A stretch of 64,000 nucleotides of DNA from an uncultured Planctomycetia bacterium (lineage in GTDB: Bacteria > Omnitrophota > Gorgyraeia > 2-02-FULL-51-18). The notes beneath the pieces were generated by a model. That model ran no database searches. It worked only from the letters and a program-made list of their open reading frames with translations, and was not told the origin of the DNA. The position numbers and the translations under genes are program-made. Numbering within the stretch: position 1 is the first letter of the stretch; every line of letters starts with the position of its first letter. This document shows positions 24,501-61,002 of this stretch, in pieces. The stretch covers positions 26,622-90,621 of the forward strand of contig CAYSKO010000008.1 of assembly GCA_964431835.1 (NCBI GenBank), given 5' to 3'.

Positions 24501-27500
24501 GATCCGGCGTTTCGTGGCGCTTACACGCAATTTCAACCCCGAGCTTTACCGCTATTTCCTTGCGACGAGCGAAGCCAAGCTGAAAGAGCTTCTTTTGTTC
24601 TCCGAAAAGATCCTTTCCGACGAAGCGGGAATGCCCGAGATCGAGGCTTTTCTGGCTCGAGCGGCGGGCGAGAAGGACTCCAAAGGACGGCCGTTCGACG
24701 GCGAGCAGCTCCTCTATGCCGTGGTCCAGCGGGCGATCCCGCCTTCCGGCGCTTCGTTTGTCCGGCAGACCGAAGCGCTCGGACTCATGAAAAAATACCT
24801 CGAAGCGGCTCGCGAACGCGACCCACGCGGAGACGTTCCGACCTCGCTCAAAGCCCTCGGAAGGTTCGGCGGCGGCGAAGTGCGGCGCATGGTCTGGCGC
24901 CGCCGCGCGGACGCGGGCGACACCTGGAGCCCTGAAGTGGCGGCTCTGATCGACGCGCTCCGGTATCCCGACGCCGCGCGTCCGACGGACGAGCTTAAGG
25001 CCGTCGTCGCCTCCGACCGCGCGCGCCTTTCCGCCGCGCTCACGGATTTGCTCAAGGATTTCGATAACGACGCCAAGCGGGACGAGGCGCTCGCGGCGTT
25101 CCTTGCGCACGCTGCCCACAGCGACGCGCTGAAAGAGAAGGTCGACCGGATCCAGACAGGAGAACGTGCCGGGCTTCGCGCCCTCGACGAGCTCTTTTTC
25201 GACAAGGACAATCTTGCGATCCTCCTCAACGAAATCCTCGCTGATTTCAATCTCGAAGGGGAAGGAGCCGTCCGCGATGGCAAGCGGCTCGCCCGGTCGT
25301 TGGGCTCGATTTGGGCCCTCCCGCTGGGCGAAGGCGCCCGGCGTGCGCGGCTCGGGATCGCGCTCGCTCCCGTGCGAAACGACGAGGTCCGGTCGAAGAT
25401 TCTCTCTGCTCTGCCGGACGTCCCCGGACTGCGCGCGGAAGTCGAAAAACTGCTCGACTCTCGCGTGAAGCTGCCGGGCGGTCTGATCGACCGTCTCTTC
25501 GAGAAACCGCGGGCGGCGATCTCCCTGGAGTCCGAGCGCTACGTCGAGATCCCTTCGGACAAAGCGGTCCGTGTTCGTTTCCAGGTCGTGAAGGGGCCCT
25601 TGTACGGGATGTGGGGCTTGAACGCGGGCGTTTGCATCGCGGCCGACGTCGCTCTCTGGAAGAGGCCGGAATTCTTCCTCCTGGCGATGATCGACGAGGA
25701 AACCGGCAGCGCGGTCGGGTTCACTCATCTTTTTACCAAGGATTTCGAGGTGGATGGAAAGACGAGCCGCCACCTGACGGTTCCCGGCATCAATCCGAGC
25801 ACGGAAATCCTCTCCGAAGTCCGCGCCTCGGAGCTTTACCCCATGGTCGAGGGGGCGCTCCGAACCGTCGCCGCTGCGGAGGGATACGACCAGATCGATC
25901 TACCGACGGACAAGAACGTGCTTTCGAACCGCAGCGACATCGTCGATCAGGCGGTCCGCAGCGGTTACGACAAAGACGACCTGCCTGAGGAGGTGGGTTG
26001 GAACTCCGTGCCGCAGCCTTACCCCTTCAAGAACGTTTTTGTGATTCCCAAGGGCGCGCGCATGTCCGGAGAGGCCCTTTCGCCCGAAGCCCGTACGGCC
26101 GCTCTCGCTTCGCGGCTCGAGACCGCCTTCCGATCGCTCGGCGAGAGCGCTCCCACCGGCGTGCGTCCCGACACCTTCGCGTTCTTCCGCAGCGCGCGTC
26201 CGACCGCGTTCGACGCTTTCGCCCGCCGTGTGGTGGAGAGTGACGACGCCCTCCTGGACCTGCGTTCGCCCGCCGTCGTGAGGATGGTTTTCCCCGTGAA
26301 AGGACGCGACAGCGTCGTTGTCCGCGTCGGCCGCGAAGGCCTCGATTTCCAGCAAGGCTCCGTTTACAAGATGCTTCCGATCGAGACCGGCGGCGCGACG
26401 AGGATCCCGTTGTCCGGCGTCCGGGCGCGCGACCCCGACGGAACCGTAAAACCGCTCTTCGATTTCCTTGCGGACTTCGGGGTTCCCGCCGAGACCGTCG
26501 CGAAAGCCCGGCTCCAGAGCCTTTCGTTCGAACACGGTTACCACCTCGAAATCGCGGCGGACGGTTCCCTCTCTCTTCCGGACCGCACGACCGGAGACGT
26601 CCAGCGCGCGCAGCTGCGCTTCGACCGGGACGGCGATCTCGTCAGCCGCCATTTCGAGGTCCCCCAGACGCCATCGTCCGAGATCCGGAACGGCCGGATC
26701 GTGTCCCTGGCGGGACACACGCACGGCATCACCGGCGACGACTTCATCTCCGAATTCACGAGCATCGACGTGGGCGTCACGTCCGTGAACGTGGTCAAAT
26801 TGCTCGATGCGCGGAAGCCTGGAGATCCCGCGGCTCTCACGCTCGCCGAGTTCCTGATCACGGAGCGCGTCGTCGGTGAGTTCGAATTCCGCGCGCTGGT
26901 CGTCGAGGTGGAGCCCGATCCGTCCGACCCGAGCGTACCCGCGACCGTGCGCCGGTTCGCGCTTAAGCACGACGCGGCGACCGGCTGGGCGATCGAAACG
27001 ACCGACGACGGCGAGCCGCTCGATTTCAACACCACCGTCGCCGAGCTGCGGGAGGACGTCGAGACGGGCGCCCGCATGGCCGACGAGCGGAAGGCCGAGC
27101 TCGATTATTTCTTCGAGGAGAACTTCATCACCTCCGGCGCCGTCGCCGACGGGAGCATCTTCGACAAGACGCCGATGGAGGTCGTGCACCGCTCGTTCGC
27201 GGAGATCGAAAAGCTCCGCCCGCTCCGGGACGCGCATTACCTGTCGATCGGCGCGGGCGACCTGCGCGACGCGTTCACGGCCGCGTACGTCCACGGAATG
27301 CGCGTGACGGCGATCGAAAAGGACCCGCGCGTGGCCGCCGGAAGCCGCGAGATTCTCGGATTCCCCGACGCCGCGAAGTTTCATGAAGACCGTTTCGAGT
27401 TCAAGGAAGGGGACGCGCTCGCCGAGTCGTGGAGCGACAAGGACGTCGTCTCGTTCTTCTACACGGAGCCGCCGAGTCTCGCGGAAGCGGCCGCTTTCCG

Positions 27501-47721: not shown

Positions 47722-49053
47722 GTGAATTACGAAGAATCGATCGAGTACGTCCAGTCGTTCGTCGATCACGAGCGCGCCGCGGATTGGGTATACCCCGAGG
47801 CGTTCAAGCTCGACCGCATGCACCGCCTCTGTAAGGACCTCGGTAATCCCCAGAACGCGTTCGAGTCCGCGATCGTCGCGGGTTCGAAAGGCAAAGGTTC
47901 CGTGGCTACGATTCTCGCGTCTATCCTGCGGATGGAAAATTACAAGGTCGGTCTTTACACCTCGCCGCACCTCATCGACCTGCGCGAACGAATTCGCGTA
48001 AACGGTTTGTGTGTGAGTGAGGTGCGGTTCGCCGAGTACGTGTCGATGTTTCGAAAGCTACTCGATACGTCCGCGTGGCGCAAGGACCCGCCGACGTACT
48101 TCGAGGTACTGACCGCGATGGCGTTTCACCATTTTCGTGAGATGAAGGTACATGTCGCCGTGCTGGAAGTCGGGCTGGGCGGCCTCTACGATTCCACGAA
48201 TGTGGCCCCGGCTAAAGTGGCGGGTTTGGCGCCCATCAGCCTCGAGCATACCGACAGGCTCGGAAAGACCGTAGCCAAGATCGCCGTCCAGAAGGCGGGA
48301 ATCATCAAAGGGCGTGAAATCGTCGTGTCGGCGCCTCAAGCCCCCGACGCCGAAGCCGTGATCGAACGCGCCGCGCGCGACCGCGAAGCCGAGCTTTTAC
48401 GCGTGGGCCGCGAGGTGAAAGTCTTCCCGCGGGACTATTCGGACGAATCCCAGAAATTCGACGTGCGCACGCCCTATGGAAACCATTTCGATCTCGAGAT
48501 ACGCCTTCTCGGCCGTCATCAGATCGACAACGCGGCGGTGGCCGTCGCGATGGCCGAAGCTCTCACGAAGAAAACCCGTCTCACAGTGACGGCCGAGGCG
48601 ATCCGGCGCGGAACGCTCGACGCGCACTGGCCCGGCCGCCTCGAGCGCGTCGCACGCGATCCGGACATTGTCTTCGACGGCGCGCAGAACCCCGACAGCG
48701 CAGAAAAACTCGTGGCCGCGCTCAAAAGGCATTTCCACTGGCGGCGGCTCCTGGTCGTGATGGGCGTCTCCTCCGACAAAGATGCGGCCGGCATTCTCGC
48801 GCAGCTTCTTCCGGAGACGGCCTGCCTTTGGGCCACGCGCTCGACCAATCCCCGCGCGCTCGCGCCCGGGGAGATCGCGCGTGAGGCCGAGGGTTTCACG
48901 GGTGAGGTTTTCGTCGAACCCGATTTCCGTGTCGCATTCCGCGCCGCGCGCGCTTCGGCACGGCCCAACGACATGGTGCTTGTCACCGGGTCCCTTTTCC
49001 TGGTGGGGGACGTGAAGGCCGCGTTTTCCAAGGAGCTCGAAGAAAGATGGTGA
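47722..49053 (+). CDS. folC: Bifunctional folylpolyglutamate synthase / dihydrofolate synthase.
   Basis: Mur-ligase-family P-loop GSKGKGS with FolC-like overall sequence. GTG start. Overlaps mnmE by 7 nt. Confidence 0.8.
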   Translation: MNYEESIEYVQSFVDHERAADWVYPEAFKLDRMHRLCKDLGNPQNAFESAIVAGSKGKGSVATILASILRMENYKVGLYTSPHLIDLRERIRVNGLCVSEVRFAEYVSMFRKLLDTSAWRKDPPTYFEVLTAMAFHHFREMKVHVAVLEVGLGGLYDSTNVAPAKVAGLAPISLEHTDRLGKTVAKIAVQKAGIIKGREIVVSAPQAPDAEAVIERAARDREAELLRVGREVKVFPRDYSDESQKFDVRTPYGNHFDLEIRLLGRHQIDNAAVAVAMAEALTKKTRLTVTAEAIRRGTLDAHWPGRLERVARDPDIVFDGAQNPDSAEKLVAALKRHFHWRRLLVVMGVSSDKDAAGILAQLLPETACLWATRSTNPRALAPGEIAREAEGFTGEVFVEPDFRVAFRAARASARPNDMVLVTGSLFLVGDVKAAFSKELEERW

Positions 49054-50447
49054 TCCGGGGGTTCGACGACGACACGATCGCCGCGATCGCGACGGCGCCC
49101 GGAGAAGGCGGCATCGGAATCGTCCGCTTGTCGGGCCGCAGTGCTCTCGAGATCGGCGACCGCATCTTCCGCGCGAAAACCGGTACGCCCGTGTCCCGTC
49201 AGAAGAGCTTCGCTGCGCGCTATGGTCACGTCGTCCGGGAGAGCGACTGTTCGTCGCGGGCCGTCGACGAGGCAATTGCGCTCGTCATGCGTGCCCCTAA
49301 AAGCTACACCTGCGAAGACGTCCTCGAGATCCATGCGCACGGCGGCTCGGCGGTGCTGCGCGAGGTGCTCGATCTCGCGCTCCGCGCGGGTGCACGTTTG
49401 GCCGAACCCGGAGAATTCACCAAGCGCGCTTTCCTGAACGGTCGTCTCGATCTGCTCCAGGCGGAGGCCGTGATCGACCTCATCCGTTCAAAGACCGCGC
49501 TCGCTCGGCGCTGGGCGTCGTCCCAGCTCGAAGGCGCTCTTTCTTCGCGTGTGCGCGAAATACGAGACGCGCTCGTCTCGGCGCTCGCTCGTCTCGAGGC
49601 TTCGATTGATTTTCCCGAAGACGCTCCCGAGGCGGACGCGCCGCCCGAGGTCGTGCGGGAGCTCGAATCGGCCGCGGCGATCCTGGCCGAGCTCACCGCC
49701 GGCGCCGAGTGGGGCAAGCTCCTGCGCCGCGGACTTTCGGCCGCCATCGTCGGCCGCCCGAACGTGGGCAAGTCGAGCCTCCTCAACGCGCTGGCAGGCG
49801 AGGACCGCGCGATCGTGACTCCGCACGCCGGTACGACGCGCGATGTGGTAGAGGCCGAGATTCAAGTAGGTGGTTTTCCGCTGCGCCTCTCCGACACCGC
49901 AGGCCTGCGCGAAACCGATCATCCCGTCGAACGCGAGGGGATCGCGCGCTCGAAGCGCGCGGCTTCCGGCGCCGAAATCCTCCTTTGCGTGTTTGACGCG
50001 AGCCGTCCGCTCGAACCCGAAGACCGCGCATTCTTCGATTCCTACGCGGACCGCGAACGGATCGCGGTCCTCAATAAAGCCGATCTCGGCATGAAGATCG
50101 ATTCCGCCGCTCTCACCGGGCCCGGCGTGCGCGCGGTGGTGGCCTGTTCGACGTTGCACCCGGATGGCATCAAGGTGTTAGAGGAGGAAATTTATAGATT
50201 CGTAGTGGGCGGCGAAGCCGAGATTCCCGAAGACGCCGTCGTCAGTTCGGTACGCCAAAAGGAGCACTTGGACCGCACGGCCGCAAGCGTCCGCGAGGCG
50301 CTCGCCTCCTGCCGGGCAGGGCTCTCCCCAGAGCTGACGGCGGTCGATGTGCGTGTAGGACTCGACCACTTGGGGCTTTTGGTGGGCGAAGTGGTGACCG
50401 ATGACGTCCTAGACGCCCTTTTCGGACGTTTCTGTATCGGAAAGTGA
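49047..50447 (+). CDS. mnmE: tRNA modification GTPase MnmE (TrmE).
   Basis: G1 motif IVGRPNVGKSSLLNAL, DTAG and C-terminal CIGK. N-terminal domain DTIAAIATAPGEGGIGIVRLSG. Confidence 0.9.
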   Translation: MVIRGFDDDTIAAIATAPGEGGIGIVRLSGRSALEIGDRIFRAKTGTPVSRQKSFAARYGHVVRESDCSSRAVDEAIALVMRAPKSYTCEDVLEIHAHGGSAVLREVLDLALRAGARLAEPGEFTKRAFLNGRLDLLQAEAVIDLIRSKTALARRWASSQLEGALSSRVREIRDALVSALARLEASIDFPEDAPEADAPPEVVRELESAAAILAELTAGAEWGKLLRRGLSAAIVGRPNVGKSSLLNALAGEDRAIVTPHAGTTRDVVEAEIQVGGFPLRLSDTAGLRETDHPVEREGIARSKRAASGAEILLCVFDASRPLEPEDRAFFDSYADRERIAVLNKADLGMKIDSAALTGPGVRAVVACSTLHPDGIKVLEEEIYRFVVGGEAEIPEDAVVSSVRQKEHLDRTAASVREALASCRAGLSPELTAVDVRVGLDHLGLLVGEVVTDDVLDALFGRFCIGK

Positions 50448-50464: not shown

Positions 50465-50494
50465 TTGCCTATTTTCGGCAGGGGACTATATAAT
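50465..50494 (+). promoter_or_regulatory. Sigma70-like promoter: TTGCCT-N18-TATAAT.
   Basis: TTGCCT at 50465-50470 and TATAAT at 50489-50494, upstream of the DUF212 gene. Confidence 0.4.
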
Positions 50495-50523: not shown

Positions 50524-50994
50524 ATGGGATTGATTAGCCCTGACTCTTTTTTCGTCCAGCTCGGCCGGAACAAAATACTGGTTACGACTTTCTTGGCCTG
50601 GGCTATCGCCCAATGCCTGAAGGTCTTGATCGGTTATTTCCGTGAAAAACGGTTTAATTTCAAATGGCTCATCCGTTCAGGTGGCATGCCGAGCTCGCAT
50701 TCGGCGCTTTCGATGAGCCTGACGACGTCGATGGGTCTTTATTACGGGTTCGATTCGGGTCTTTTCGCAATGTCGCTGGGATTCGCGGCGATCACGATGT
50801 TCGATGCGCAAGGGGTACGCCGCCACAGCGGCCGCCAGGCCGCCGCGCTCAACCGGATTTTGGACGACCTGTACGCGCACAAAGGTATCCAGCAGGAGCC
50901 CCTCAAGGAGCTCCTGGGTCACGCGCCGGTGGAGGTTTACGCCGGCGGACTTTTGGGGATCGTGGTCGCGATTTTGTTCTACAGCCGAGGATAA
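50524..50994 (+). CDS. Divergent PAP2 / DUF212 family membrane protein (acid phosphatase/vanadium haloperoxidase-related).
   Basis: 156 aa with TM helices and a GGMPSSHSAL signature. Confidence 0.65.
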   Translation: MGLISPDSFFVQLGRNKILVTTFLAWAIAQCLKVLIGYFREKRFNFKWLIRSGGMPSSHSALSMSLTTSMGLYYGFDSGLFAMSLGFAAITMFDAQGVRRHSGRQAAALNRILDDLYAHKGIQQEPLKELLGHAPVEVYAGGLLGIVVAILFYSRG

Positions 50995-50998
50995 GCCC

Positions 50999-52036
50999 TT
51001 GATCACCGCCCTGGATTTCGAAAAACCGATTTTCGAGCTCGAAAAGAAGATCGCCGAGCTTCGTAGCCTTTCGAACGACGGTAATCTGAACCTCCTCACC
51101 GAGGTGAAGAAGCTCGAGGGTCGCCTCGAACACCTTAAGAAAGAAACCTATTCCGGCCTCACCCCCTGGCAGCGCGTCCAGCTGGCGCGCCATCCCAAGC
51201 GTCCCTACACCCTCGATTACATCGGAATGATCTTCAGCGAGTTCGTCGAGTTCCACGGCGACCGCACGTTCGCCGACGATAAAGCGCTGATCGGCGGTTT
51301 CGCCAAGCTGGATGGCCAGACGTTCCTCGTGATCGGCCACCAAAAAGGCCGCGACGCGAAGGAAAACATTATGCGAAACTTCGGAAGCGCCCATCCGGAG
51401 GGCTATCGCAAGGCCCTGCGTCTCATGCGGATGGCGGAGAAGTTCGACGTGCCGATCGCGGTCTTCGTCGACACCCCGGGAGCTTATCCGGGCGTCGGAG
51501 CCGAAGAGCGCGGCCAGGCCTACACCATCGCATTCAACATCCGCGAGATGGCGCGCGTGCGCGTGCCGATCGTCGTCTTCGTCATCGGGGAGGGTGGCTC
51601 GGGCGGAGCGCTCGGTATCGGCGTTGGCGACCGTGTGCTCGTCATGGAAAACGCCTACTATTCCGTCATTTCGCCGGAGGGCTGCGCGGCCATTCTCTGG
51701 AAGGACCGCACGAAGGCTCCTGAGGCCGCCGCCGCACTTCGTCTCACCGCGAAGGATCTCCTTGAGATGAAGCTCATCGACGAGGTGGTGAAGGAGCCGC
51801 TCGGCGGGGCGCACCGGGACCCGGCTGTGGCGGCGGAAGCGATCAAGACCGCGATTAAGAAGTACTGGAAAGAGCTCGAGAACGTGGACCGGGAACAGCT
51901 CGTCGAGAATCGTTACGCGAAGTTCCGTTCGATCGGCGTCTTCGAGAGCCGCTCGTCGGTCGAGGCGGCCGAAAGGATCGCCGCAACGAATGGCAAAAAA
52001 AGCCGTCAGAAAAAAAGAGTTCCGGCTACCAAGTGA
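50999..52036 (+). CDS. accA: Acetyl-CoA carboxylase carboxyltransferase alpha subunit.
   Basis: LDFEKPIFELEKKIAELR matches the AccA N-terminus. VDTPGAYPGVGAEERGQ is the carboxyltransferase motif. TTG start at 50999 with a GAGGATAA SD. The listed ORF from 50804 is rejected as an extension. Carries an unusual Lys-rich C-terminal tail. Confidence 0.85.
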   Translation: MITALDFEKPIFELEKKIAELRSLSNDGNLNLLTEVKKLEGRLEHLKKETYSGLTPWQRVQLARHPKRPYTLDYIGMIFSEFVEFHGDRTFADDKALIGGFAKLDGQTFLVIGHQKGRDAKENIMRNFGSAHPEGYRKALRLMRMAEKFDVPIAVFVDTPGAYPGVGAEERGQAYTIAFNIREMARVRVPIVVFVIGEGGSGGALGIGVGDRVLVMENAYYSVISPEGCAAILWKDRTKAPEAAAALRLTAKDLLEMKLIDEVVKEPLGGAHRDPAVAAEAIKTAIKKYWKELENVDREQLVENRYAKFRSIGVFESRSSVEAAERIAATNGKKSRQKKRVPATK

Positions 52037-52439
52037 CCTCGCGGAGGTCCAGAAGGCGAGCGCCAAGGTGCTCGCCTTTCTGCGGCCTCTTTCGCTGAGC
52101 GAAGCCGCGTCGTTCGACATCCGTCTGTGTCTTGAGGAGGCGCTGATCAACGCCATGAAATATGGCCACGGTCTGCGTCCGGAACTCGAAGTGCGTCTTG
52201 CCGCCGAATACGACGACGAGTCCATCCGGCTGACGATCGAGGATCACGGGCCGGGTTTCGACGTCGACAAAGTGGCCGACTGCACGCAGAAGAGCAATCT
52301 TTTGAGAGGCAGCGGGCGCGGTGTGTATCTCATCCGTCAGCTGATGGACGAAGTCGAATACAACGCCAAGGGAAACCGCCTGACGATGACTAAGCGTCTC
52401 GTCGGGCCCGAAACGAAGCGATTAAGGAAAAGGGAGTAG
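51990..52439 (+). CDS. Anti-sigma regulatory factor-type Ser/Thr kinase (RsbW/SpoIIAB-like HATPase_c).
   Basis: 149 aa. EFRLPSDLAEVQKASAKVLAF...EALINAMKYGH and a GxG ATP-lid (GSGRGVYL). Overlaps accA by 47 nt. Confidence 0.7.
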   Translation: MAKKAVRKKEFRLPSDLAEVQKASAKVLAFLRPLSLSEAASFDIRLCLEEALINAMKYGHGLRPELEVRLAAEYDDESIRLTIEDHGPGFDVDKVADCTQKSNLLRGSGRGVYLIRQLMDEVEYNAKGNRLTMTKRLVGPETKRLRKRE

Positions 52440-52446
52440 TCATCCA

Positions 52447-52773
52447 ATGACCGTGAAATCATTCGAAAAGGACGGAGTGGCCGTCTTTCAGGTGAACGGC
52501 GAGATCAATATCAGCACGTCGCCGGATCTGAAGAAGCATTTCGAAAAACTGGCCGCCAAGAAAGTCGTCGTCGACCTCACCGAGGTCGGTTACGTCGACA
52601 GCTCGGGTCTGGCTACGTTGGTTGAGATGCTGAAGAAGACGAAGTCGCAGGGAGGCAGCCTCGGGCTCGCCGGAATGTCCGAGAAAGTCCGCAGCCTTTT
52701 CGAGATCACGAAACTCGACAAGCTTTTCCCGATCTTCGCCAGCCAGGAGGAAGCGGTCACGCGTGTCAAGTAA
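52447..52773 (+). CDS. STAS-domain anti-sigma-factor antagonist (SpoIIAA/RsbV-like; possibly a MlaB analogue).
   Basis: 108 aa. Conserved phosphorylatable Ser in VDSSGLATLVEML. Confidence 0.75.
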   Translation: MTVKSFEKDGVAVFQVNGEINISTSPDLKKHFEKLAAKKVVVDLTEVGYVDSSGLATLVEMLKKTKSQGGSLGLAGMSEKVRSLFEITKLDKLFPIFASQEEAVTRVK

Positions 52774-52790
52774 GGCGCTCCGGAGTCCAT

Positions 52791-53582
52791 TTGTTGTTCG
52801 TTGAGTCGGTCGGCCGGGCGACACACGCACTCGCCGGGCAGATCAGTCAGACGAGCTCTCTCCTGGCTCAGACGCTTTATTGGCTCGTCGTCGGTCCGTT
52901 CCGAAAGAAACCCGTCTCCCGCAAGAGCGTCTTCGCCCAAACCGTCTTCTCCGGCTGGGATTCCCTGGCCATCGTCTTCTTCACCGATTTCTTCATCGGC
53001 ATGGTGCTTGCCATGCAGTCCGCGTACCAGCTCGAACAGCTCGGCGCCACGCTTTACGTGGCCGCTCTCGTGGGCGTCTCGATGGCCCGCGAGATCGGGC
53101 CCGTCCTGACCGCGCTCGTCGTTGCGGGCCGAGTCGGAGCGGCCATCACCGCCGAACTCGCAACCATGAAGGTCACCGAGCAGGTCGAAGCGCTCCAGAC
53201 CCTTTCGCTCAATCCCGTCCGGTATCTCGTCGCGCCCCGGTTCATGGCGCTTCTTCTTATGGTGCCGTGTCTTACGCTTCTCGGCGACTTGATAGGGATG
53301 TTCGGCGGCTTCGTGATCGGAACCACGAGTCTCGGACTTCCGCCCGGCCTCTACATCGACACCACGTTCGAGTTCTTGACGGCCAAGGACGTTCTTACCG
53401 GCCTTCTGAAAAGCGCCGTATTCGCGATGCTGATCGCGCTTATCGCCTGCCAGCAAGGCTTGGCCGCCGAGGGCGGCGCCGAGGGTGTAGGCCGCGCGAC
53501 CACGCGCAGCGTCGTCACGAGTTTCATCATGATCATCGTTGCCGACGCGCTCCTTACCGCTTTCTTCTACATGGCCGGCTGA
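52791..53582 (+). CDS. mlaE: ABC-transporter permease MlaE (phospholipid transport).
   Basis: 263 aa. MlaE-like EQLGATLYVAALVGVSMAREIGPVLTALVVAGRVG...ELATMKVTEQVEAL. TTG start with a GGAG SD. Confidence 0.8.
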   Translation: MLFVESVGRATHALAGQISQTSSLLAQTLYWLVVGPFRKKPVSRKSVFAQTVFSGWDSLAIVFFTDFFIGMVLAMQSAYQLEQLGATLYVAALVGVSMAREIGPVLTALVVAGRVGAAITAELATMKVTEQVEALQTLSLNPVRYLVAPRFMALLLMVPCLTLLGDLIGMFGGFVIGTTSLGLPPGLYIDTTFEFLTAKDVLTGLLKSAVFAMLIALIACQQGLAAEGGAEGVGRATTRSVVTSFIMIIVADALLTAFFYMAG

Positions 53583-54385
53583 TGACGGCTCCGCGCGAAC
53601 CCGTCATCTCTGTGAAAAGCCTGGTCAAGACCTTCGGGGGGCGCCGTGTGCTCGACGGCGTCACGCTCGATATCCACCGCGGAGAGACCTTCGTGATCAT
53701 GGGCGGTTCCGGCTGCGGCAAGAGCACGTTCCTGCGCCATCTGATCGGTGCGATCCGGCCGGACTCCGGCGAAGTCTGGATGTTCGGGCAGGACATCGCG
53801 AAGGCGAGCGAGGACTCGATGGACGAAATCAGGAAGAAATTTGGCATGCTCTTTCAGTCGGGCGCGCTCTTCGACTCGATGACGGTGGGGGAGAACGTGG
53901 CGCTGCCGCTTCGCGAGCACACGAAGCTCGACGACAGCGTGATCCAGATCATGGTCAAGATGAAGCTCGAGCTCGTGGGTCTTCGCGGCTTCGAGCACCT
54001 CATGCCCTCGCAGCTCTCGGGGGGCATGAAAAAGCGCGTGGGCCTCGCCCGCGCGATCGCGCTCGACCCCGCGATCATTTTCTACGACGAACCGACCGCC
54101 GGACTCGATCCGATCATGACCGGCGTCGTCGACAAGCTCACGATCGACCTCACTAAGCGGCTCGGCCTTACCTCCGTGGTCGTCACGCATGACATGAATA
54201 GCGTGTTCCGGATCGCGGACCGCATCGTGATGTTCCACCAGGGTCGCATCCGGCAGATAGGCACTCCGGACGAGATCCGGAAGTCGAAGGACCCGATCGT
54301 GCAGCAGTTCATCACCGGAGAAGCCGAGGGGCCGATCGCCCACCAGGGCGAGGACTACCTCGACCATCTGACCAAAGGTTTCTAA
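53582..54385 (+). CDS. mlaF: ABC-transporter ATPase MlaF.
   Basis: Walker A GGSGCGKST. ABC signature LSGGMKKRVGLARA. Walker B IIFYDEPTAGLD. ATG overlaps the mlaE stop. The listed 501-aa ORF from 52880 is rejected. Confidence 0.85.
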   Translation: MTAPREPVISVKSLVKTFGGRRVLDGVTLDIHRGETFVIMGGSGCGKSTFLRHLIGAIRPDSGEVWMFGQDIAKASEDSMDEIRKKFGMLFQSGALFDSMTVGENVALPLREHTKLDDSVIQIMVKMKLELVGLRGFEHLMPSQLSGGMKKRVGLARAIALDPAIIFYDEPTAGLDPIMTGVVDKLTIDLTKRLGLTSVVVTHDMNSVFRIADRIVMFHQGRIRQIGTPDEIRKSKDPIVQQFITGEAEGPIAHQGEDYLDHLTKGF

Positions 54386-54397
54386 CAAGGAGGCGGG

Positions 54398-55156
54398 ATG
54401 AAAGCGGGCGCATTCTCGAACGAAGCGAAGACCGGCACGATCGTGCTGGTATCGATCGCCCTTCTGATCGGGCTCATGATCAAGATCGGAAATTTCTCGG
54501 TGTTCCAAAAGGGATACACCGTGAAGTCCCGTTTCCATTTCACCGGCGGTGTGAAACGCCATTCGCCAGTCCGTCTCTCCGGCGTGGATGTCGGGGAAGT
54601 GAAGGATATCCGCATGATCTACGGCGAGGAGACGCTCGTCGAGGTGGATCTCTGGCTCCGCGACGAAACGAAACTACGGATGGATTCGCAGGCGTACGTC
54701 ACAACGCTCGGCATGATGGGCGAGAAGTACATCGAGATCAAAGCGGGCACGCCGGCCGCCGAATGGGCCAAGGACGGGGACACGATCCCCGGCAAGGACC
54801 CGGTCCGGCTCGAGGAGCTCGTCGAAGTCGGCACCAAGGTCGCAGGCGACGTGAGCGACATGGCCAAGAACATCGGTTCCCTCGCCAAGCACGCCGACGA
54901 GGCGGTCGTCGGCAACCGGCCGAAGATCGACCGGACCTTCTCGAACCTCGAAGACACTTCCGAGAACTTCCGCGATTTCAGTGAGGATATCAAGTGGCAC
55001 CCCTGGAAGATCCTCGTGAAGGGCAGGGAGAAATCGCGTAGCGACGTCGAGGCCGAGAGGACCAAGCGCGCTGCGGCCCGCGTCGAGGCAAAAAAGCAGT
55101 CCCAGAACTTCGCGCCCAAGGCGGGAACGCCTTCCGGCACAAAGGAAACCTCATGA
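54398..55156 (+). CDS. mlaD: MCE-domain protein MlaD.
   Basis: N-terminal TM helix followed by an MCE domain. AGGAGG SD. Confidence 0.75.
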   Translation: MKAGAFSNEAKTGTIVLVSIALLIGLMIKIGNFSVFQKGYTVKSRFHFTGGVKRHSPVRLSGVDVGEVKDIRMIYGEETLVEVDLWLRDETKLRMDSQAYVTTLGMMGEKYIEIKAGTPAAEWAKDGDTIPGKDPVRLEELVEVGTKVAGDVSDMAKNIGSLAKHADEAVVGNRPKIDRTFSNLEDTSENFRDFSEDIKWHPWKILVKGREKSRSDVEAERTKRAAARVEAKKQSQNFAPKAGTPSGTKETS

Positions 55157-55977
55157 CAAAGCGTCTCGTTCTCTTGCTCGCCGTCTGCCTCGCCATGACC
55201 GCGCCCGTCTCTGCCGCCGAAGGCCGTGCGCGGGCTTCCGGGGTCTCGGGAGATGTTACGGTTTTCTCCGGATCCTCTCCTTCACGGCGACTCGCCTCTG
55301 GTGATGCCGTGGTCGCGGGCGACGAGATCCGCGCCGCCGCCAACTCGAAGTGCAGCCTCGTCCTCGAAGGGAAACCCTCGAGCGCAGTGAAAATAGAACC
55401 TTCGTCGACGGTCCGCGTCTCGTCGCTCGACCCGGTTCGCCTAGACGTCCGGGGCGGGAAGCTTTTCGCGCTCGTCAACGGCCTTGCGAAAGGATCCACG
55501 TTCGAAGTCAGCACGCCCACCGCTATCGCGTCCGTCCGCGGCACCGCACTCGGCGCCGAGACGGGGGCTGCGGGAGACCGTTTCTACGCGTTCGAGAATT
55601 CGATCGAAGTCACACCTCAAGGCGGCGTACCGGCCGTTCTCGAAGAGGGTTTCGGCGCCTCGGTAGGTGGTGGTGCCCTTGAGACGTTCCAGCTTGGCGA
55701 CGCCGACCGGGAGTATTTCCGCGAGTCCGCAAGGGAAGCCGAAGAAGCCATGAAGGAAGTGCCGAAGGCGGCCGGCGAGGAAGCCGCGCGCAGCCTCCTC
55801 GTCTTCGAAGACGACCCGATGCCATCCGATCTCTCGACCGGCGCCGACGCGATGCCGAACGCCAAAGAGGAGACGCGGGAAGTCGGGGCCGCTGAAGCTT
55901 TCAAGAAAAACGATAGCGGTGGTACGGGAACCGGCGGCCAAGGCGGTACCAGCCCGGGCGGCGGCGGCGACATCTGA
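55153..55977 (+). CDS. Secreted FecR-domain protein.
   Basis: Signal peptide MTKRLVLLLAVCLAMTAPVSA. FecR-like VSTPTAIASVRGTALG. ATG overlaps the mlaD stop (ATGA). Confidence 0.55.
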   Translation: MTKRLVLLLAVCLAMTAPVSAAEGRARASGVSGDVTVFSGSSPSRRLASGDAVVAGDEIRAAANSKCSLVLEGKPSSAVKIEPSSTVRVSSLDPVRLDVRGGKLFALVNGLAKGSTFEVSTPTAIASVRGTALGAETGAAGDRFYAFENSIEVTPQGGVPAVLEEGFGASVGGGALETFQLGDADREYFRESAREAEEAMKEVPKAAGEEAARSLLVFEDDPMPSDLSTGADAMPNAKEETREVGAAEAFKKNDSGGTGTGGQGGTSPGGGGDI

Positions 55978-55982
55978 AGCGC

Positions 55983-56933
55983 TTGAAGAGATTGGGAGCG
56001 CTTCTAACGCTCTTCGTATTTCTCTTTACGGGCATCGCTCTTCCCGCCGCGTCGGCGGGCGATTCTTCCGTGGACGTACGGGCGGGGATCGGGATCGGCC
56101 GGGACGATAACGCCCGGCTCGACTCCGGCCGAAAAGGTGACGCGTTCCTCCAGGAATCCGCGTCGGTGGGCTGGCGCAAGCGGACGGGGGACAATTCCCG
56201 TCTGCGCGTTTTTTACGACGTCTTCAACGTGAATTATTTCGAAGTGACCGATCAAAGCTTCCTGTGGCAGGGCGCCGGCGCCGGCTACGACGTCGCCCTG
56301 ACGCCCGAAACCGCCGTCCAATTCGACTACACGCTCGAATGGCTCTATTTTCCCGACAACGAATCGGTAGGTTCGCACGTGAACGAGGGCCGCATCGGGC
56401 TTCTCCGGCGTTTTTACTCGGGAGCCTATGTGAAAGCCGGAATCGGCCTTTCCGAACGACAGTTCGCGGACAATAAGCGCCGGGACGGCGCCGGTCTCCT
56501 TTCCGGGGACGACGAGCGGACGGACCGCCGCGTCGGAGGGGACGCCGAGATCGGATTTCTCCCCATCAAGACGCTGCTCGTCCGCCTCGGCGGTTCGATC
56601 TACAACAACGACTCGGACGATGCTTTCCACGACTTTTACGACTACCGCTCTGTCTCCTCCTACGCCACGGCGACATTACGCATCACTGCTAAGCTCTTCG
56701 CTTTTTTCAAGGCGGGAATCGAAAATCAGGCTTTTCACTCGCGTCCGCTTCTCGACGCTCCCGGCTCCGAGGAAGATTCGGACCTTTATACGGGAACCCT
56801 CGCCATCTTTTACCGGCTCCGGGAAAACATCACTCTCTCCCTGACCCAAAACTACCGCGAGAAAGTTTCGAACGAACCCTCCCGCGAACACTCCGGCTCC
56901 ATCTCAACCCTTGGCCTTCTTTACTCGTTTTAA
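55983..56933 (+). CDS. Putative outer-membrane beta-barrel protein.
   Basis: Signal peptide, alternating-hydrophobic strands and a C-terminal LLYSF (terminal Phe). TTG start. Confidence 0.45.
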   Translation: MKRLGALLTLFVFLFTGIALPAASAGDSSVDVRAGIGIGRDDNARLDSGRKGDAFLQESASVGWRKRTGDNSRLRVFYDVFNVNYFEVTDQSFLWQGAGAGYDVALTPETAVQFDYTLEWLYFPDNESVGSHVNEGRIGLLRRFYSGAYVKAGIGLSERQFADNKRRDGAGLLSGDDERTDRRVGGDAEIGFLPIKTLLVRLGGSIYNNDSDDAFHDFYDYRSVSSYATATLRITAKLFAFFKAGIENQAFHSRPLLDAPGSEEDSDLYTGTLAIFYRLRENITLSLTQNYREKVSNEPSREHSGSISTLGLLYSF

Positions 56934-58836
56934 GAGGTACTCGCCGCTCGTTTGGGCCGCGACGGCGGTCCTGGCGGGGTCTCTGTCCTGGTTCCGCGTC
57001 TTCGAACTCTACGAGCTCCAAACCTACGACTGGCGCTGCGTGGTCCGGGGAGCCCGGCCCGTCTCTCCCGACATCGTCCTCATCGACATCTGGGACGACA
57101 CGTTGAAAGCGCTTGGTGCCTGGCCCTTCGACCGCGGGTACCATGCGGAGCTCATCGACGCGCTCGCCGCGCACGGAGTGAAAGGCGTCGCGATGGATAT
57201 GGTCATCGTCGAGGAACGTGAAGGGGACGACGCGGTCGCCGCGGCCGCCGCACGCGCGAAGAACGTGTATTTCGTCGAGGCGTTCTACAGCGTCCTGCCG
57301 CACGCGGGCAAATTCCGTTCGGACCGCCTGATCGCGCCCCTCATCCCCGAATACGCGAAGGCCGCCCGCGCCGTCGCCCACGTGAATTCCACAGCCGATA
57401 TGGACGGCAAGCGGCGCCGCACGTTTCCCATTATCGAGCACGAAGGACGAAACCACTACCAGCTGAGTCTCCGCGTGGCGATGGACGTTTTCGGAGTGAA
57501 TCCCGAATCGATGCACTTGAATCCCGGAAAAGAAATCGATTTCGGCGGAAAGATACGGATCCCGCTCGACGAACAAGGCCATTTCATCGTCAATTACGCG
57601 GGTCCCTGGGAAGACACGTTCAAGCACTACTCGTATTTTGAGGTTTTGGCGGCCCGTCTCCAGGAAACGTCGGGACAGAAACCGATAATCGATCTCGAGG
57701 AATTACGCGGAAAGATATGCTTCGTCGGGCTCACGTCGCTCGGCTCGCACGACACCAACCCCGTGCCGATCCAGGCGGTCTATCCGATGGTCGGTATGCA
57801 CGCAAACGTGCTGAATTCGCTTCTGACCGGGGATTTCATTCGGCGACTCGACCGGTCCGCCAACCTCGCGGTCCTGGCGCTCTTTTGTCTCTGGGTGATC
57901 TTCCTCTCGGTGAAGCTTAAGCCCTGGAAGGCGCTGGGGGCGGTGCTTGCGACCTTGATCGCCTACGTGGGCCTGGTGACCGCCGTCTTCTCGCTCTGGG
58001 GCCTCTGGGTCGACCTTTTCTACCCCTGCATGCTCTTCGCGGCGCTCTACGCGGGGTCGACGCTCCGGCGCGTGATGCACGAGACGCGCCGCCGCGAACT
58101 CATCGAGGGCGAGCTCAAGATCGCGAGCCAGATCCAGCAGAGCTTTCTTCCCGCAAGCCTTCCTAAGGAGAACGGCGTCGAAATCGCGGTTTTCATGAAA
58201 CCCGCGAAAGCCGTCGGTGGGGATCTCTACTCGTTCGTGACGCTCAAGGACGGCAAGCTCGGTATCATGGTCGGCGACGTCTCAGGAAAGGGGACGCCGG
58301 CCGCCCTCTTTATGGCGAAAACCGTCTCGGAGTTCAAATTCTCAGCGCGAGACGAGGAGGATCCCGCGGCGGCGCTCGCTCGGCTCAACGACTCGATCGC
58401 GGGGGAATCGACCGGCGGTTTGTTCGTCACGCTGACGTATGCTATATTTGACATGCATTCGAAGAAGGTCCGTCTGGCCAACGCGGGCCACCTGCCGGTC
58501 GTCCTCGTGACACCGGAAGGCGAGTCCGCTCTCGTGACCGCGGATGATGGCATGCCGATCGGAGTGTTTGCGGGCGCGGAATTTACGATGAAGGAAATTC
58601 CGATGCGGCCCGGCGAATGTTTCGCGTTTTACTCCGACGGAGTCAGCGAAGCTCGCAACCGCCGTAAAGATGAATATGGAGTCGAGGCCCTGCAAAAAAC
58701 CATGGTCGAACACCGCGCCGAGTCCGCCCCCGCGATCCTCGAAAAAGCGGTCGTAGACCTGACGCGTTTCATGGCCAAAGCCGAACAGCACGACGACATC
58801 ACTTTGATCGTGGTAAAAGTCGGCGAGGTGACTTGA
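56911..58836 (+). CDS. CHASE2 sensor fused to a PP2C/SpoIIE-type Ser/Thr phosphatase (RsbU-like).
   Basis: CHASE2-like IDIWDDTLKALGAWPFDRGYHAELIDAL. TM helices. PP2C/SpoIIE motif GDVSGKGTPAALFMAKT. Start is uncertain (TTG 56911). Confidence 0.75.
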   Translation: MAFFTRFKRYSPLVWAATAVLAGSLSWFRVFELYELQTYDWRCVVRGARPVSPDIVLIDIWDDTLKALGAWPFDRGYHAELIDALAAHGVKGVAMDMVIVEEREGDDAVAAAAARAKNVYFVEAFYSVLPHAGKFRSDRLIAPLIPEYAKAARAVAHVNSTADMDGKRRRTFPIIEHEGRNHYQLSLRVAMDVFGVNPESMHLNPGKEIDFGGKIRIPLDEQGHFIVNYAGPWEDTFKHYSYFEVLAARLQETSGQKPIIDLEELRGKICFVGLTSLGSHDTNPVPIQAVYPMVGMHANVLNSLLTGDFIRRLDRSANLAVLALFCLWVIFLSVKLKPWKALGAVLATLIAYVGLVTAVFSLWGLWVDLFYPCMLFAALYAGSTLRRVMHETRRRELIEGELKIASQIQQSFLPASLPKENGVEIAVFMKPAKAVGGDLYSFVTLKDGKLGIMVGDVSGKGTPAALFMAKTVSEFKFSARDEEDPAAALARLNDSIAGESTGGLFVTLTYAIFDMHSKKVRLANAGHLPVVLVTPEGESALVTADDGMPIGVFAGAEFTMKEIPMRPGECFAFYSDGVSEARNRRKDEYGVEALQKTMVEHRAESAPAILEKAVVDLTRFMAKAEQHDDITLIVVKVGEVT

Positions 58837-60587
58837 AACACAAAAGCAAGATCCTCCTCATGATCGACGACGCCGCTTTCCGCGACGGCGTCGAAAAAGC
58901 TTTCAAGAAGCTCCCTGCGAACGCCCTTTTCGTCACCGGCGGAAACGTCATGCAAAAGGTGTTCGACGAAGTGCCCCACGTGATCGTCATCGACGAGGAT
59001 TTCGGTAGCGGGGAAGGGCACAGCCTCGCGCTCAACGTGAAAGAGGACGCGGTCCTTAAATACATTCCCGTCGTCCTCATCGTGCGCAGCGAAGTCCCGG
59101 CCGCCGGCGACGAGCCCATCGAGCTCTGCTTCCGTAAAGACCAGGACCCCGCGCATTTGGCGTTCTGCGTCGGCGAAATTTTGAAGAAGAACATACACGA
59201 ACTCGACTTGAACCCTCTCACGCACCTGCCCGGCACGCGTTCGAGCGTTCTCCGTCTCGAAAAAGCGGTCACTTCGAAGGAGCGTTTTTCGATCTGCTGC
59301 ATCGATCTATCGGACCTTGCAGCGTTCAACAGCGCCTACGGCGACGCACGCGGCGACGAGATCATCGTGAAGATCGGCCACATCCTGCAGGAAGTGCTGA
59401 AAAAAGAAGGCGGGGCGGACGATTTCGTCGGCCATCTCGGCGGAGACGACTTCGTGGTCGTGACGAATCCGGGGATGGCGATTCAGATCTCGGAAGAGGT
59501 CATCCGCCAGTTCGACTCGACGGTGCCCCAGTTTTACGACGCCAACGACCGCAAGCAGGGATATATTCTACAGAGAAATCACGAGGGAACTCTGACGCAG
59601 TACCCCATCATGAGCGTCTCGGTCGCGCTCGTCCAGCACGGCGGATCCAGCGGCACCGTCCAGATGAGCGAGATCAGCCGCATTGCGTCCGAGCTCAAGC
59701 GCTATATGAAAACACTCCCGGGCAGCTGCTACATCAACTACAGCTACGCCGGCGCGCATCCCGAGGTCACCGGGTCCTATCTCGAAGTCCGCTTCCCGAC
59801 GAAGATGGAAAGCGTGCGCGTGCCGAGCCTGGCCGTGCGCTCCGACAAATATGAGGCTTTCCTGAACGTCGTCGTGAGAGGGAAGAAGCTTTCCAGCGTT
59901 TTCCAGCCGATCGTGGACATGAAGGTCCGCCGGATCGTGGGGTACGAAGCTCTGACGCGCTGTCCGGAGGGCGATTTCGCCTCTGATCCGGCGTCGCTTT
60001 TCAGCATGGCGCGCGAATCCGGCCGGACGAAGGAACTCGACAAGATTTGTGTCGACTGCGCGCTCCGGACGGCGCAGGGGCTTCCGGCGGACCGAAAGAT
60101 TTTTCTCAACCTGAACCACGAGACGCTGATCGATCCCAAAAGCATGAAAACGCTCTTCTCCGAAAAGGGAACGATCGGCTTCAAGAACATCGTCATCGAG
60201 GTGACGGAGCAGAGCATTCTGCGTTCGTTCCAAAAGGTGAAGGACGCGCTCCTCGAGCTCAAGGAACAGGGCGTTTCGGTCGCAATCGACGACGTGGGCG
60301 GAGGCGCGGTCTCCCTCCGCGACGTGGCGGTACTCAAACCCGATTTCATCAAGTTCGACCGTTCGCTCATCCGGCAGATCGACTCCAACGTCACCAAGCA
60401 GCAGATCGTTCTTTCGATGCTTCTTTTCGCCAACGGCATCAACGCGATGACCACGGCCGAGGGGATCGAAACGAAGGAGGAGTATGACGCCGTCATGATG
60501 TGCGGCGTACCTCTGGGGCAGGGGTATTTCATCTCCCGTCCCGGGAAAGCCTTCCCCGAGATCCAAATGCCTTCGGAAGTTAGTTAA
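58833..60587 (+). CDS. REC-like domain, degenerate GGDEF (GGDDF) and EAL domain protein (c-di-GMP turnover).
   Basis: KILLMIDD REC-like N-terminus. HLGGDDFVVV in place of GGDEF. EAL domain FQPIVDMKVRRIVGYEALTRCP ... DDVGGG. Confidence 0.8.
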   Translation: MKHKSKILLMIDDAAFRDGVEKAFKKLPANALFVTGGNVMQKVFDEVPHVIVIDEDFGSGEGHSLALNVKEDAVLKYIPVVLIVRSEVPAAGDEPIELCFRKDQDPAHLAFCVGEILKKNIHELDLNPLTHLPGTRSSVLRLEKAVTSKERFSICCIDLSDLAAFNSAYGDARGDEIIVKIGHILQEVLKKEGGADDFVGHLGGDDFVVVTNPGMAIQISEEVIRQFDSTVPQFYDANDRKQGYILQRNHEGTLTQYPIMSVSVALVQHGGSSGTVQMSEISRIASELKRYMKTLPGSCYINYSYAGAHPEVTGSYLEVRFPTKMESVRVPSLAVRSDKYEAFLNVVVRGKKLSSVFQPIVDMKVRRIVGYEALTRCPEGDFASDPASLFSMARESGRTKELDKICVDCALRTAQGLPADRKIFLNLNHETLIDPKSMKTLFSEKGTIGFKNIVIEVTEQSILRSFQKVKDALLELKEQGVSVAIDDVGGGAVSLRDVAVLKPDFIKFDRSLIRQIDSNVTKQQIVLSMLLFANGINAMTTAEGIETKEEYDAVMMCGVPLGQGYFISRPGKAFPEIQMPSEVS

Positions 60588-60663: not shown

Positions 60664-60951
60664 GTGCCTATCACCGCTAAGCGCAAGTCCGGTCGCATAA
60701 CGAACTACATGGAAGAGCTCACGCAAGACGTCCTCAAGAGCCTGCTTCCGGAGTACAAGGCCGCCCGCTTCAGCGAAGAGGCGATCCAGGATATCAAAGC
60801 GCTCGCGTTGAACCGCCTCTGGCCGATGTATACGACCTCCACTTCGGGTAAGGATTTCCTGAAGAAGGCCGTCGAAGAGGACAGTGTCGAAAAAGACGTC
60901 GTCCGGGAACTCCGCGCCGCTATCGATATCGTCAAGTCGAACCCGCGCTAA
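60664..60951 (+). CDS. ComFB-like protein (late competence development protein family).
   Basis: 95 aa. NYMEELTQDVL ... ALNRLWPMY follows the ComFB-family pattern; the cysteines seen in some family members are absent. Confidence 0.4.
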   Translation: MPITAKRKSGRITNYMEELTQDVLKSLLPEYKAARFSEEAIQDIKALALNRLWPMYTTSTSGKDFLKKAVEEDSVEKDVVRELRAAIDIVKSNPR

Positions 60952-60967
60952 AGCTTCGTTTTTTCAA

Positions 60968-61002
60968 AGCCCCGCTCCCACCCGGAGCGGGGCTTTTCTT
61001 TT
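60968..61002 (+). terminator. Strong rho-independent terminator.
   Basis: 11-bp stem AGCCCCGCTCC (60968-60978) pairing with GGAGCGGGGCT (60984-60994) around a 5-nt loop, followed by TTTTCTTTT. Confidence 0.75.

Follow-up and report, generated by a model that had tools for sequence, protein, structure and literature searches.

Kinase, STAS and sensor-phosphatase genes around an mlaEFD operon in Omnitrophota: a possible switchable analogue of MlaB

The DNA considered here is a stretch of 64,000 nucleotides (the window; positions 26,622 to 90,621 of contig CAYSKO010000008.1, assembly GCA_964431835.1) from an uncultured bacterium of the Omnitrophota. It carries the lipid-transport genes mlaE, mlaF and mlaD, preceded by genes for an RsbW/SpoIIAB-like serine kinase and a single-domain STAS protein and followed, two genes further on, by a gene for a CHASE2-PP2C sensor phosphatase. 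Because the E. coli Mla transporter has a STAS subunit of its own, MlaB, our main focus is on whether the STAS protein of this locus could serve MlaF in the same way while being controlled by the kinase and the phosphatase.

The mla locus and its gene products

Every plausible gene in the window is on the + strand. The kinase gene (51990-52439, 149 amino acids; Pfam HATPase_c_2, E 7e-30) starts within the end of accA, which it overlaps by 47 nt, and is followed by the STAS gene (52447-52773, 108 amino acids; PF01740, E 1e-23), whose product has the motif D51-S52-S53-G54 with the putative phospho-acceptor Ser52. Next come the genes for the permease MlaE (52791-53582, 263 amino acids; PF02405, E 9e-80), the ATP-binding cassette (ABC) ATPase MlaF (53582-54385, 267 amino acids; ABC_tran, E 6e-33) and the MCE-domain protein MlaD (54398-55156, 252 amino acids; PF02470, E 3e-16). 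Two genes then separate mlaD from the phosphatase gene: one for a FecR-domain protein with a signal peptide (55153-55977, 274 amino acids; PF04773, E 2e-6), the other for a product that, as read from the sequence, resembles an outer membrane protein (55983-56933, 316 amino acids, signal peptide, C-terminal ...LLYSF). The phosphatase itself (56911-58836, 641 amino acids) is a membrane sensor with CHASE2 (E 1e-45) and SpoIIE-type PP2C (SpoIIE, E 1e-50) domains. The module genes are spaced by -47 to +17 nt, and such tight spacing or overlap is consistent with one operon.

These Pfam calls uphold the first-pass annotation of this DNA, which had named the kinase, the STAS protein with its DSSG serine, mlaE-mlaF-mlaD and the CHASE2-PP2C phosphatase at these coordinates. 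Its layout, with mlaEFD ahead of the phosphatase, was right as to order and needed two amendments: the start of mlaF moves to 53582, where the mlaF ATG and the mlaE TGA overlap by one base, and the FecR-like and outer-membrane-protein-like genes, left unnamed there, intervene.

A permease, an ATPase with the signature LSGGM and an MCE subunit, encoded in one operon, make up the core of an Mla/MCE ABC transporter. MlaE scores 252 bits on TIGR00056 (cut-off 212), and MlaD scores 60 bits on PF02470 (cut-off 25) and matches TIGR04430 at E 3e-24, below the cut-off of that model. For MlaF, the best NCBIfam match is MlaF PRK11831 (E 1.5e-77), and the best PDB matches are the MlaF proteins of A. baumannii, P. 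aeruginosa and E. coli, in alignments that reach the C-terminal extension. This extension of about 22 residues, ending ...EDYLDHLTKGF, is kept in full, including, with D-Y-L-x-x-L, the part that packs against MlaB in E. coli; the motif D-D-Y-L-E-x-L is conserved in 68 orthologues. Pfam detected neither MlaC nor MlaA among the genes at 29.5-64 kb of the window, which fits the MlaEFD-only core that a study of Mla in Veillonella calls ancestral, with MlaA, MlaB and MlaC sparse outside Proteobacteria (PMC10665443).

The kinase matches SpoIIAB and RsbW weakly in NCBIfam and the PDB, and 80 orthologues share its N-box (E..NA..YG), G1 (D.G.GF) and G2 (GRG) motifs. Its best PDB sequence match, ahead of SpoIIAB and RsbW, is 9qih, 'SenB' (E 2.7e-9, C-terminal half only), a lead that we dropped because nothing useful on it turned up in the literature. 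The phosphatase runs from an N-terminal transmembrane segment through a periplasmic CHASE2 domain (PF05226, residues 22-330, flanked by hydrophobic segments) and three transmembrane helices to the cytoplasmic PP2C domain (residues 447-637), an arrangement that identifies it as a CHASE2 sensor; the catalytic motifs GDVSGKG, SDGVSEA and HDDIT can be read in its sequence. With a cognate HATPase_c_2 kinase and a PP2C phosphatase encoded alongside the STAS protein, the ATP boxes of the one and the metal motifs of the other being intact, the set is by definition a partner-switching module, sigma target excepted.

The STAS protein scores 80.6 bits on TIGR00377, the model for anti-sigma-factor antagonists (cut-off 53.45). 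Its top PDB sequence matches are TM1442, a Haliangium antagonist, RsbV and SpoIIAA (E 8e-15 to 6e-8), and MlaB is matched at E 2e-5 over a partial stretch. An AlphaFold2 model of the protein (predicted local distance difference test 92.6) gives Foldseek TM-scores of 0.84-0.91 to TM1442, SpoIIAA and RsbV and of 0.61-0.67 to MlaB. Judged by hidden Markov model score and predicted fold, it is a canonical SpoIIAA/RsbV-type anti-sigma-factor antagonist. Ser52 (VD-S-SGL) aligns both with the phospho-serine of SpoIIAA and with Thr52 of E. coli MlaB (VD-T-GGL). In 82 STAS sequences the segments DSSGLATL and LFEITKLD show at least 95% conservation and Ser52 is invariant. Among Omnitrophota relatives the STAS protein is 50-85% identical and the kinase 35-70%; that the STAS protein is the better conserved accords with its being a hub for several partners.

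A second, paralogous STAS gene is present in some Omnitrophota (L067:14533-15045(-), L080:15502-15867(-), L087:3481-3825 and L093:7001-7342, where L numbers denote related loci). It adjoins an HD-domain gene in L087 and L093 and lies near the mla module in L067, L080 and L087, and the kinase and phosphatase of the module may act on its product as well.

Conservation and rearrangement of the module

With a STAS alignment as query we scanned one genome per species and obtained 80 loci. All come from Omnitrophota-type metagenome-assembled genomes, and we mapped them with the window proteins. L050 and L051 are the same single-cell-genome contig read both ways and are counted once, which leaves 79 species-level loci; this contig has the PP2C gene twice, on opposite strands, and is probably an amplification chimera. 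The closest relatives are labelled Candidatus Omnitrophota, a few of them Eisenbacteria or 'uncultured Planctomycetia'. The kinase gene directly precedes the STAS gene in all 77 evaluable Omnitrophota loci, mlaE directly follows it in 71 of 72, and a PP2C gene lies downstream of mlaD in 45 of 46. L010 is without PP2C, L061 and L066 have none within the available flank, and its apparent lack in L013 is an artefact of the overlap filter.

Gene order alone is weak evidence, given that an upstream run of genes is conserved as well: the order folC (47722-49053 in the window), mnmE (49047-50447), DUF212 (50524-50994) and accA (50999-52036, TTG start) is also kept in most Omnitrophota loci. Nine loci, however, have a gene other than accA upstream (lpxD in L034, L039 and L048, plus five other contexts), and the genes 3' of the phosphatase vary as well, with GGDEF-EAL, HD-GYP, phosphoglycerate mutase, TonB receptor and others (named by eye, with no family scan). 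As the neighbours on both sides vary, the conserved unit is exactly kinase through PP2C. On a Kappaea-like Omnitrophota contig the six genes even stand in wholly unrelated surroundings. The co-occurrence analysis that the first-pass annotation had called for therefore finds the linkage kept in 79 species-level Omnitrophota loci and also where the flanking synteny is lost.

Beyond Omnitrophota, we combined a representative search, context look-ups and a metagenome scan with an alignment of non-Omnitrophota STAS proteins (80 loci), and found the same genes in other arrangements. The order GAF-PP2C, kinase, STAS, mlaE, mlaF, mlaD, ABC_trans_aux occurs in the Calditrichaeota assembly GCA_020634975.1 (L179), in a second Calditrichaeota-type assembly (L180) and in the metagenome loci L110, L140, L144 and L172. 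STAS and mlaEFD are followed by GAF-PP2C and kinase as separate genes in L094, and by a GAF-PP2C-kinase fusion in L097 (8784-10457) and L101 (4512-6224). L168 has kinase, STAS, mlaEFD, one further gene and REC-PP2C, and in L087 kinase-STAS-mlaEFD is divergent from STAS2-HD and two genes for PP2C proteins with seven transmembrane helices (7TM). STAS-mlaEFD stands alone in a Verrucomicrobiae genome (L098) and likewise in L104 and L138. These loci span 39-69% G+C. In every rearranged architecture the STAS gene lies immediately upstream of mlaE, all Mla-linked STAS proteins of these loci keep DSSG, and the Y-x3-L extension of MlaF is kept in all that were checked but L140 (for example DDYLKNLL, DQYLNTIV and MDYLQML). 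A GAF-PP2C-kinase fusion also precedes a STAS gene at L145 (993-2663), with no mlaE in the following 777 nt. The Calditrichaeota operon ends with ABC_trans_aux (PF03886; L179:7867-8472), after a long MlaD with a faint 'helical needle' match, which gives it an Mla-Pqi-like chimeric look. An MlaF match at 73% identity from a 'Caldithrix sp.' suggests that the cultured Caldithrix abyssi has the operon too.

The metagenome scan also allowed a comparison of STAS genes with and without mla. STAS lies directly upstream of mlaE in 27 of the 80 loci; seven of these are fully evaluable, and kinase and PP2C are each found in six of them, with none lacking both. At 34 evaluable STAS loci without mla, tblastn, which may miss distant RsbW-like kinases, detected this type of kinase once and a PP2C match once. 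Many soil loci of this kind carry an orphan STAS gene between HAD-hydrolase-like and glycosyltransferase-like genes (named by eye, with no family scan), and we therefore rejected kinase adjacency as a general trait of the STAS relatives retrieved. Shuffled order, swapped sensors and a fixed STAS-mlaE junction are what is expected if the STAS protein is Mla-specific and the two enzymes are its regulators. Conservation in 79 species-level genomes together with rearrangement in other phyla makes the linkage more than chance.

Of the genes that separate mlaD from the phosphatase gene, the FecR gene is found in about one third of the lineages, always adjoining the phosphatase, and the outer-membrane-protein-like gene co-occurs with it. 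The window copy of the latter has no Pfam match, and its orthologues have faint OMP_b-brl matches. In L034, L048 and L052 a gene for a TPR outer membrane protein and a FecR gene lie 3' of the PP2C gene, and L090 encodes a large FecR protein upstream of its CHASE2-PP2C. Since the FecR-like and outer membrane proteins travel with the phosphatase and not with mla, we read them as part of the input. FecR and CHASE2 genes are also associated in operons of Burkholderia (PMC5192318). The FecR-like protein is likely the periplasmic partner of the CHASE2 sensor, and the combination of outer membrane protein, FecR and CHASE2 phosphatase suggests a three-part sensor across outer membrane, periplasm and inner membrane. 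The earlier suggestion of an envelope signal sensed by CHASE2 fits the phosphatase of this lineage and has to be narrowed to it, since in other lineages the inputs are GAF or REC domains in the cytoplasm.

Downstream of the phosphatase the window has genes for a GGDEF-EAL protein (58833-60587; EAL E 1e-48, GGDEF E 1e-11) and ComFB (60664-60951; Pfam). This pair is kept after the PP2C gene only in the closest Omnitrophota clade, and could be a clade-specific second output or a mere neighbour.

A weak, consensus-only match to a sigma-70-like promoter (50465..50494, + strand, 10 of 12 positions) lies upstream of DUF212-accA-kinase, in one of only two sizeable intergenic gaps of the region, and a hairpin at 60966-60996, directly 3' of ComFB, is the strongest terminator-like structure of the region (13 pairs, 9 G-C). 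The promoter and terminator scan of the region gave no more matches than shuffles, and only the positions of two are suggestive. The hairpin falls inside a long open frame ahead of an addB-like gene (+ strand, extending past the right window end), so that addB probably begins 3' of it. In 54 related loci a LysM-YkuD (L,D-transpeptidase-like) gene lies between DUF212 and accA; it is missing in the window (50994-50999). Two giant open reading frames on the + strand occupy 8-9457 (at least 3149 amino acids, cut by the window end) and 9583-29487 (6634 amino acids). Their codon-position G+C is gene-like, and Pfam searches of the first and of the first 4000 residues of the second gave weak islands only (Pkinase fragment, 30 bits; Peptidase_M48, 35.6 bits, in the stretch scanned of the second).

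A proposed switch on MlaFED and competing explanations

We searched the window for sigma factors with Pfam (plausible genes at 29.5-64 kb, the first giant open reading frame and the first 4000 amino acids of the second) and with tblastn of RpoD, SigF and RpoE over its whole length, and neither method found a sigma-70-family gene there, which bears out the earlier remark that no sigma-B-type target is evident in the window. With the same three tblastn queries, about 170 related loci yielded a single sigma-70-family gene, for an extracytoplasmic function (ECF) sigma factor, 7 kb upstream in L061. The arrangement usual for sigma-regulating partner switches, a sigma gene beside the kinase, was thus seen neither in the window nor in these loci.

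What is known of MlaB offers another kind of target. In E. coli, helices alpha1-3 of MlaB contact the helical subdomain of MlaF, with Thr52 at the centre of the interface, and the phosphomimetic T52E weakens binding; Tyr261, Leu265 and Leu266 from the extension of the neighbouring MlaF fill the groove between MlaB and MlaF, and without MlaB, MlaF is lost from the complex (PMC7367683). The authors of that work find phosphoregulation of MlaB 'particularly intriguing', while it is unproven and without known mechanism (PMC7367683). We put at roughly 0.6 the probability that the STAS protein of the present locus is a phosphorylation-controlled accessory subunit of MlaFED, which would bind MlaF in its unphosphorylated form as MlaB does and whose availability would be set by the kinase and the phosphatase. 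We propose that it came into this role from the SpoIIAA/RsbV branch of STAS proteins and is a functional analogue of proteobacterial MlaB.

Such a switch could work as follows. The unphosphorylated STAS protein would dock with its helical face, where Ser52 sits at the start of alpha2, onto the helical subdomain of one MlaF and the C-terminal extension of the next, and binding would stabilise or activate the transporter, as MlaB does in E. coli. The RsbW-like kinase would take the same face and phosphorylate Ser52, upon which the STAS protein would leave MlaF and the transporter would be turned down. The membrane PP2C would dephosphorylate it again upon an envelope signal at the periplasmic CHASE2 domain, probably with the help of the FecR-like protein and the outer membrane protein. 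The STAS protein would in this way switch between kinase and MlaF, and the output would be transporter activity instead of transcription. Other lineages would have wired the same switch to GAF, REC or 7TM inputs. The first-pass annotation had suggested that the STAS protein may double as an MlaB analogue whose availability is set by partner switching, and we consider this supported: the testable predictions all came out in its favour, namely the linkage, the shuffled orders with their exchanged sensors, the STAS-mlaE junction, the STAS-mlaEFD arrangement of L098, the want of a sigma-70-family gene at these loci (the one in L061 apart) and the MlaF extension, along with the earlier listing of two Omnitrophica STAS genes as 'MlaB in cluster' (PMC10665443).

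Several observations speak against this proposal, beginning with the family of the STAS protein. The profile comparison with MlaB and RsbV types asked for by the annotation places it with the RsbV/SpoIIAA branch: on the MlaB model NF033618 (mlaB_1) it scores 45.6 bits, below the cut-off of 90, where E. coli MlaB reaches 127. The window score looked raised next to generic controls (RsbV 24, SpoIIAA 26, TM1442 29, an Omnitrophota paralogue 21 bits), but Mla-linked STAS proteins of other lineages score 25-39 bits, overlapping these controls, and the STAS protein of L090, which is not Mla-linked, scores 39.7, so that we dropped the score as a discriminator. MlaB is moreover a 'minimalist' STAS protein of four strands and three helices that lacks the fifth strand and the C-terminal helix (PMC7367683), whereas the fold predicted here has both (beta5 at residues 96-97, alpha4 at 100-107). 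Position in the mla operon and a Ser/Thr at the N-terminus of alpha2 are thus shared with MlaB, while family score and minimal fold are not; the protein is an analogue of MlaB, not an orthologue, and MlaB-like in its working at most.

The association with mla also has its exceptions. In L032 (5395-8050) kinase, STAS and PP2C genes are still conserved although mlaEFD is cleanly absent, leaving a 63-nt gap. We looked for relaxed selection on this mla-less STAS protein and saw no clear signal: it deviates at 2 conserved columns, where the mean is 0.6 and other loci reach 3-5. At L090 (668-9083) a large FecR gene, three unknown genes, CHASE2-PP2C, kinase and STAS are followed by an Ion_trans_2 channel gene, with no mlaEFD. 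Conversely, Supplementary Data 1 of PMC10665443 lists for Ca. Omnitrophus magneticus a second mlaEFD cluster without STAS. MlaFED lacks MlaB in many bacteria, among them Veillonella, whose MlaF extension is shortened (PMC10665443); as MlaFED works without MlaB in so many, the conserved MlaF extension alone is no proof of a STAS partner. Finally, rate covariation across 38 genomes gave a partial r of 0.38 for STAS-mlaF, the second highest value, and it is matched by accA (accA-STAS 0.35, accA-mlaF 0.31). The covariation reflects slow versus fast rate classes, and we dropped it as support.

Both the family of the STAS protein, a canonical anti-sigma-factor antagonist by profile and fold, and the resemblance of the kinase to SpoIIAB and RsbW would suit a conventional transcription switch, in which the kinase would be the anti-sigma factor of a sigma encoded elsewhere and the STAS protein only its antagonist, without contact to the transporter, and in which the module would be co-transcribed with mlaEFD as part of an envelope-stress response. 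We consider this unlikely. The trio that persists without mlaEFD in L032 does favour it, as do comparable trios in Gemmatimonadota that have neither mla nor a sigma gene next to them; in Chlamydia, which like Omnitrophota belongs to the PVC group (Planctomycetes, Verrucomicrobia and Chlamydiae), an Rsb module with a membrane sensor phosphatase is reported to act on the primary sigma factor, which is encoded elsewhere (Thompson 2015, as listed in PMC8256260). In canonical sigB and sigF operons, however, the sigma gene lies beside the kinase, and beside the present module there is none in about 170 loci, the one ECF sigma apart. It is also the STAS gene, not the kinase gene, that stays at mlaE in all rearrangements; STAS-mlaEFD occurs without a nearby kinase; the kinase evolves faster than the STAS protein; and L097 and L101 have kinase and phosphatase in one polypeptide, as in SypE, where the STAS protein is the output.

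That the module is a hub with several targets, or has another target such as the GGDEF-EAL/ComFB cyclic di-GMP pair or channels, or that the kinase rather than the STAS protein docks on MlaF or MlaE, seems to us quite improbable. GGDEF-EAL and ComFB do follow PP2C throughout the closest clade, and Pseudomonas HsbA is reportedly a STAS protein that binds a diguanylate cyclase; yet GGDEF-EAL is gone from the neighbourhood in distant Omnitrophota and absent in other phyla, where mlaEFD stays. The extra STAS paralogues near the module in some genomes and the channel gene after the L090 cassette point the same way as the cyclic di-GMP pair, but a channel takes the place of mla in that one locus only. 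It could be, finally, that the genes are neighbours without any functional tie, through the conservative gene order of the phylum, as the equally ordered and unrelated folC, mnmE, DUF212 and accA might lead one to think. We give this hardly any credence: at least six different replacements of the upstream genes leave the block intact, and its reappearance in other phyla with different gene orders and sensors brings frozen, phylum-wide synteny close to refutation.

If the STAS protein is indeed a switchable subunit of MlaFED, an ABC transporter would become one of the few outputs of partner-switching modules that are not sigma factors, and the interchangeable CHASE2, GAF, REC and 7TM inputs suggest that the signal to which envelope lipid homeostasis is coupled differs between bacteria. 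These operons also supply natural systems in which a putative STAS subunit comes with both enzymes and a recognisable input domain, and so bear on the question of MlaB phosphoregulation raised in PMC7367683. It is tempting to go further and see in kinase, STAS protein and sensor PP2C a portable, widespread cassette that gates membrane transporters directly and post-translationally: in Omnitrophota, Calditrichota and further lineages it would gate MlaFED through a STAS subunit evolved independently of proteobacterial MlaB, and in at least one lineage (L090) such a cassette stands before an ion channel gene. We offer this wider view tentatively and lean somewhat against it; were it true, phospho-regulated STAS proteins would form a general class of transporter regulators, and much of the bacterial tree would control outer-membrane lipid trafficking rapidly and in response to signals.

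Relation to known systems

STAS genes at this position have already been recorded as MlaB. Supplementary Data 1 of the Veillonella study scores 'MlaB in cluster' for two of five Omnitrophica genomes, with accessions consecutive with mlaE, mlaF and mlaD (for example KJJ84113-84116), as well as for one Phycisphaerales and one Verrucomicrobia genome, and that table makes no mention of the kinase and the phosphatase (PMC10665443). Our search of the literature, from which subscription journals were mostly missing, found nothing that links Mla to partner-switching, RsbW, SpoIIE, a kinase or a phosphatase; a review of STAS-only proteins does not mention Mla (PMC8256260), and the STAS and Mla literatures do not cite each other on a kinase/phosphatase link.

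The nearest comparison is with MlaFEDB of E. coli and A. baumannii (PMC7367683, PMC5016091), which likewise has a single-domain STAS protein encoded in the mla operon, a Ser/Thr at the start of alpha2, the LSGGM signature and the Y-x3-L(L) extension. Unlike there, the STAS gene comes first here, upstream of mlaE, whereas the MlaB gene comes last; the protein belongs to the SpoIIAA/RsbV branch, with the extra beta5 and alpha4 and a score below the MlaB cut-off; and a dedicated kinase and phosphatase, of which none is known for MlaB, are encoded alongside, with no mlaC or mlaA at the locus.

The enzymes have their counterparts in the SpoIIE-SpoIIAA-SpoIIAB and RsbU-RsbV-RsbW modules of Bacillus, which draw on the same three families and share the DSSG phospho-serine, the STAS fold (TM-scores of 0.84-0.91) and a PP2C that carries a sensor or input domain at its N-terminus and reactivates the STAS protein. 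The present module differs in having no adjacent sigma gene, in the succession of kinase, STAS and then transporter, and in a kinase that is less conserved than the STAS protein. The proposed output differs too: here the STAS protein would act on an ABC ATPase, there the kinase acts on sigma.

Closer in the role proposed for the STAS protein are V. fischeri SypE-SypA, Bordetella BtrU/V/W and Pseudomonas HsbR-HsbA (PMC8256260, PMC10120452), partner-switch-like systems where the STAS protein, when unphosphorylated, itself gives the output, on a target other than a sigma factor. Where a target of these STAS proteins is known it is a regulator, while the genomic context here points to the MlaF ATPase as a specific candidate. 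SypE also resembles the L097 and L101 fusions in uniting kinase and PP2C in one polypeptide, though not in domain order, which is GAF-PP2C-kinase in the fusions. In SypE the order is kinase-REC-PP2C.

SLC26/SulP anion transporters offer a precedent for a STAS domain that regulates a membrane transporter by protein-protein contact. There the domain is fused to a secondary transporter and has no dedicated kinase or phosphatase, whereas here it would be a free subunit of a primary ABC transporter. As to the input, the FecR and CHASE2 operons of Burkholderia likewise place the gene for a periplasmic FecR-domain protein beside that for a CHASE2 membrane sensor; their output is a histidine kinase with a response regulator, where the present locus has a PP2C and, in addition, the outer-membrane-protein-like gene (PMC5192318). 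The kinds of component are thus already known; what is new is their combination, a sensor-PP2C/kinase pair probably dedicated to a putative STAS subunit of an ABC lipid transporter.

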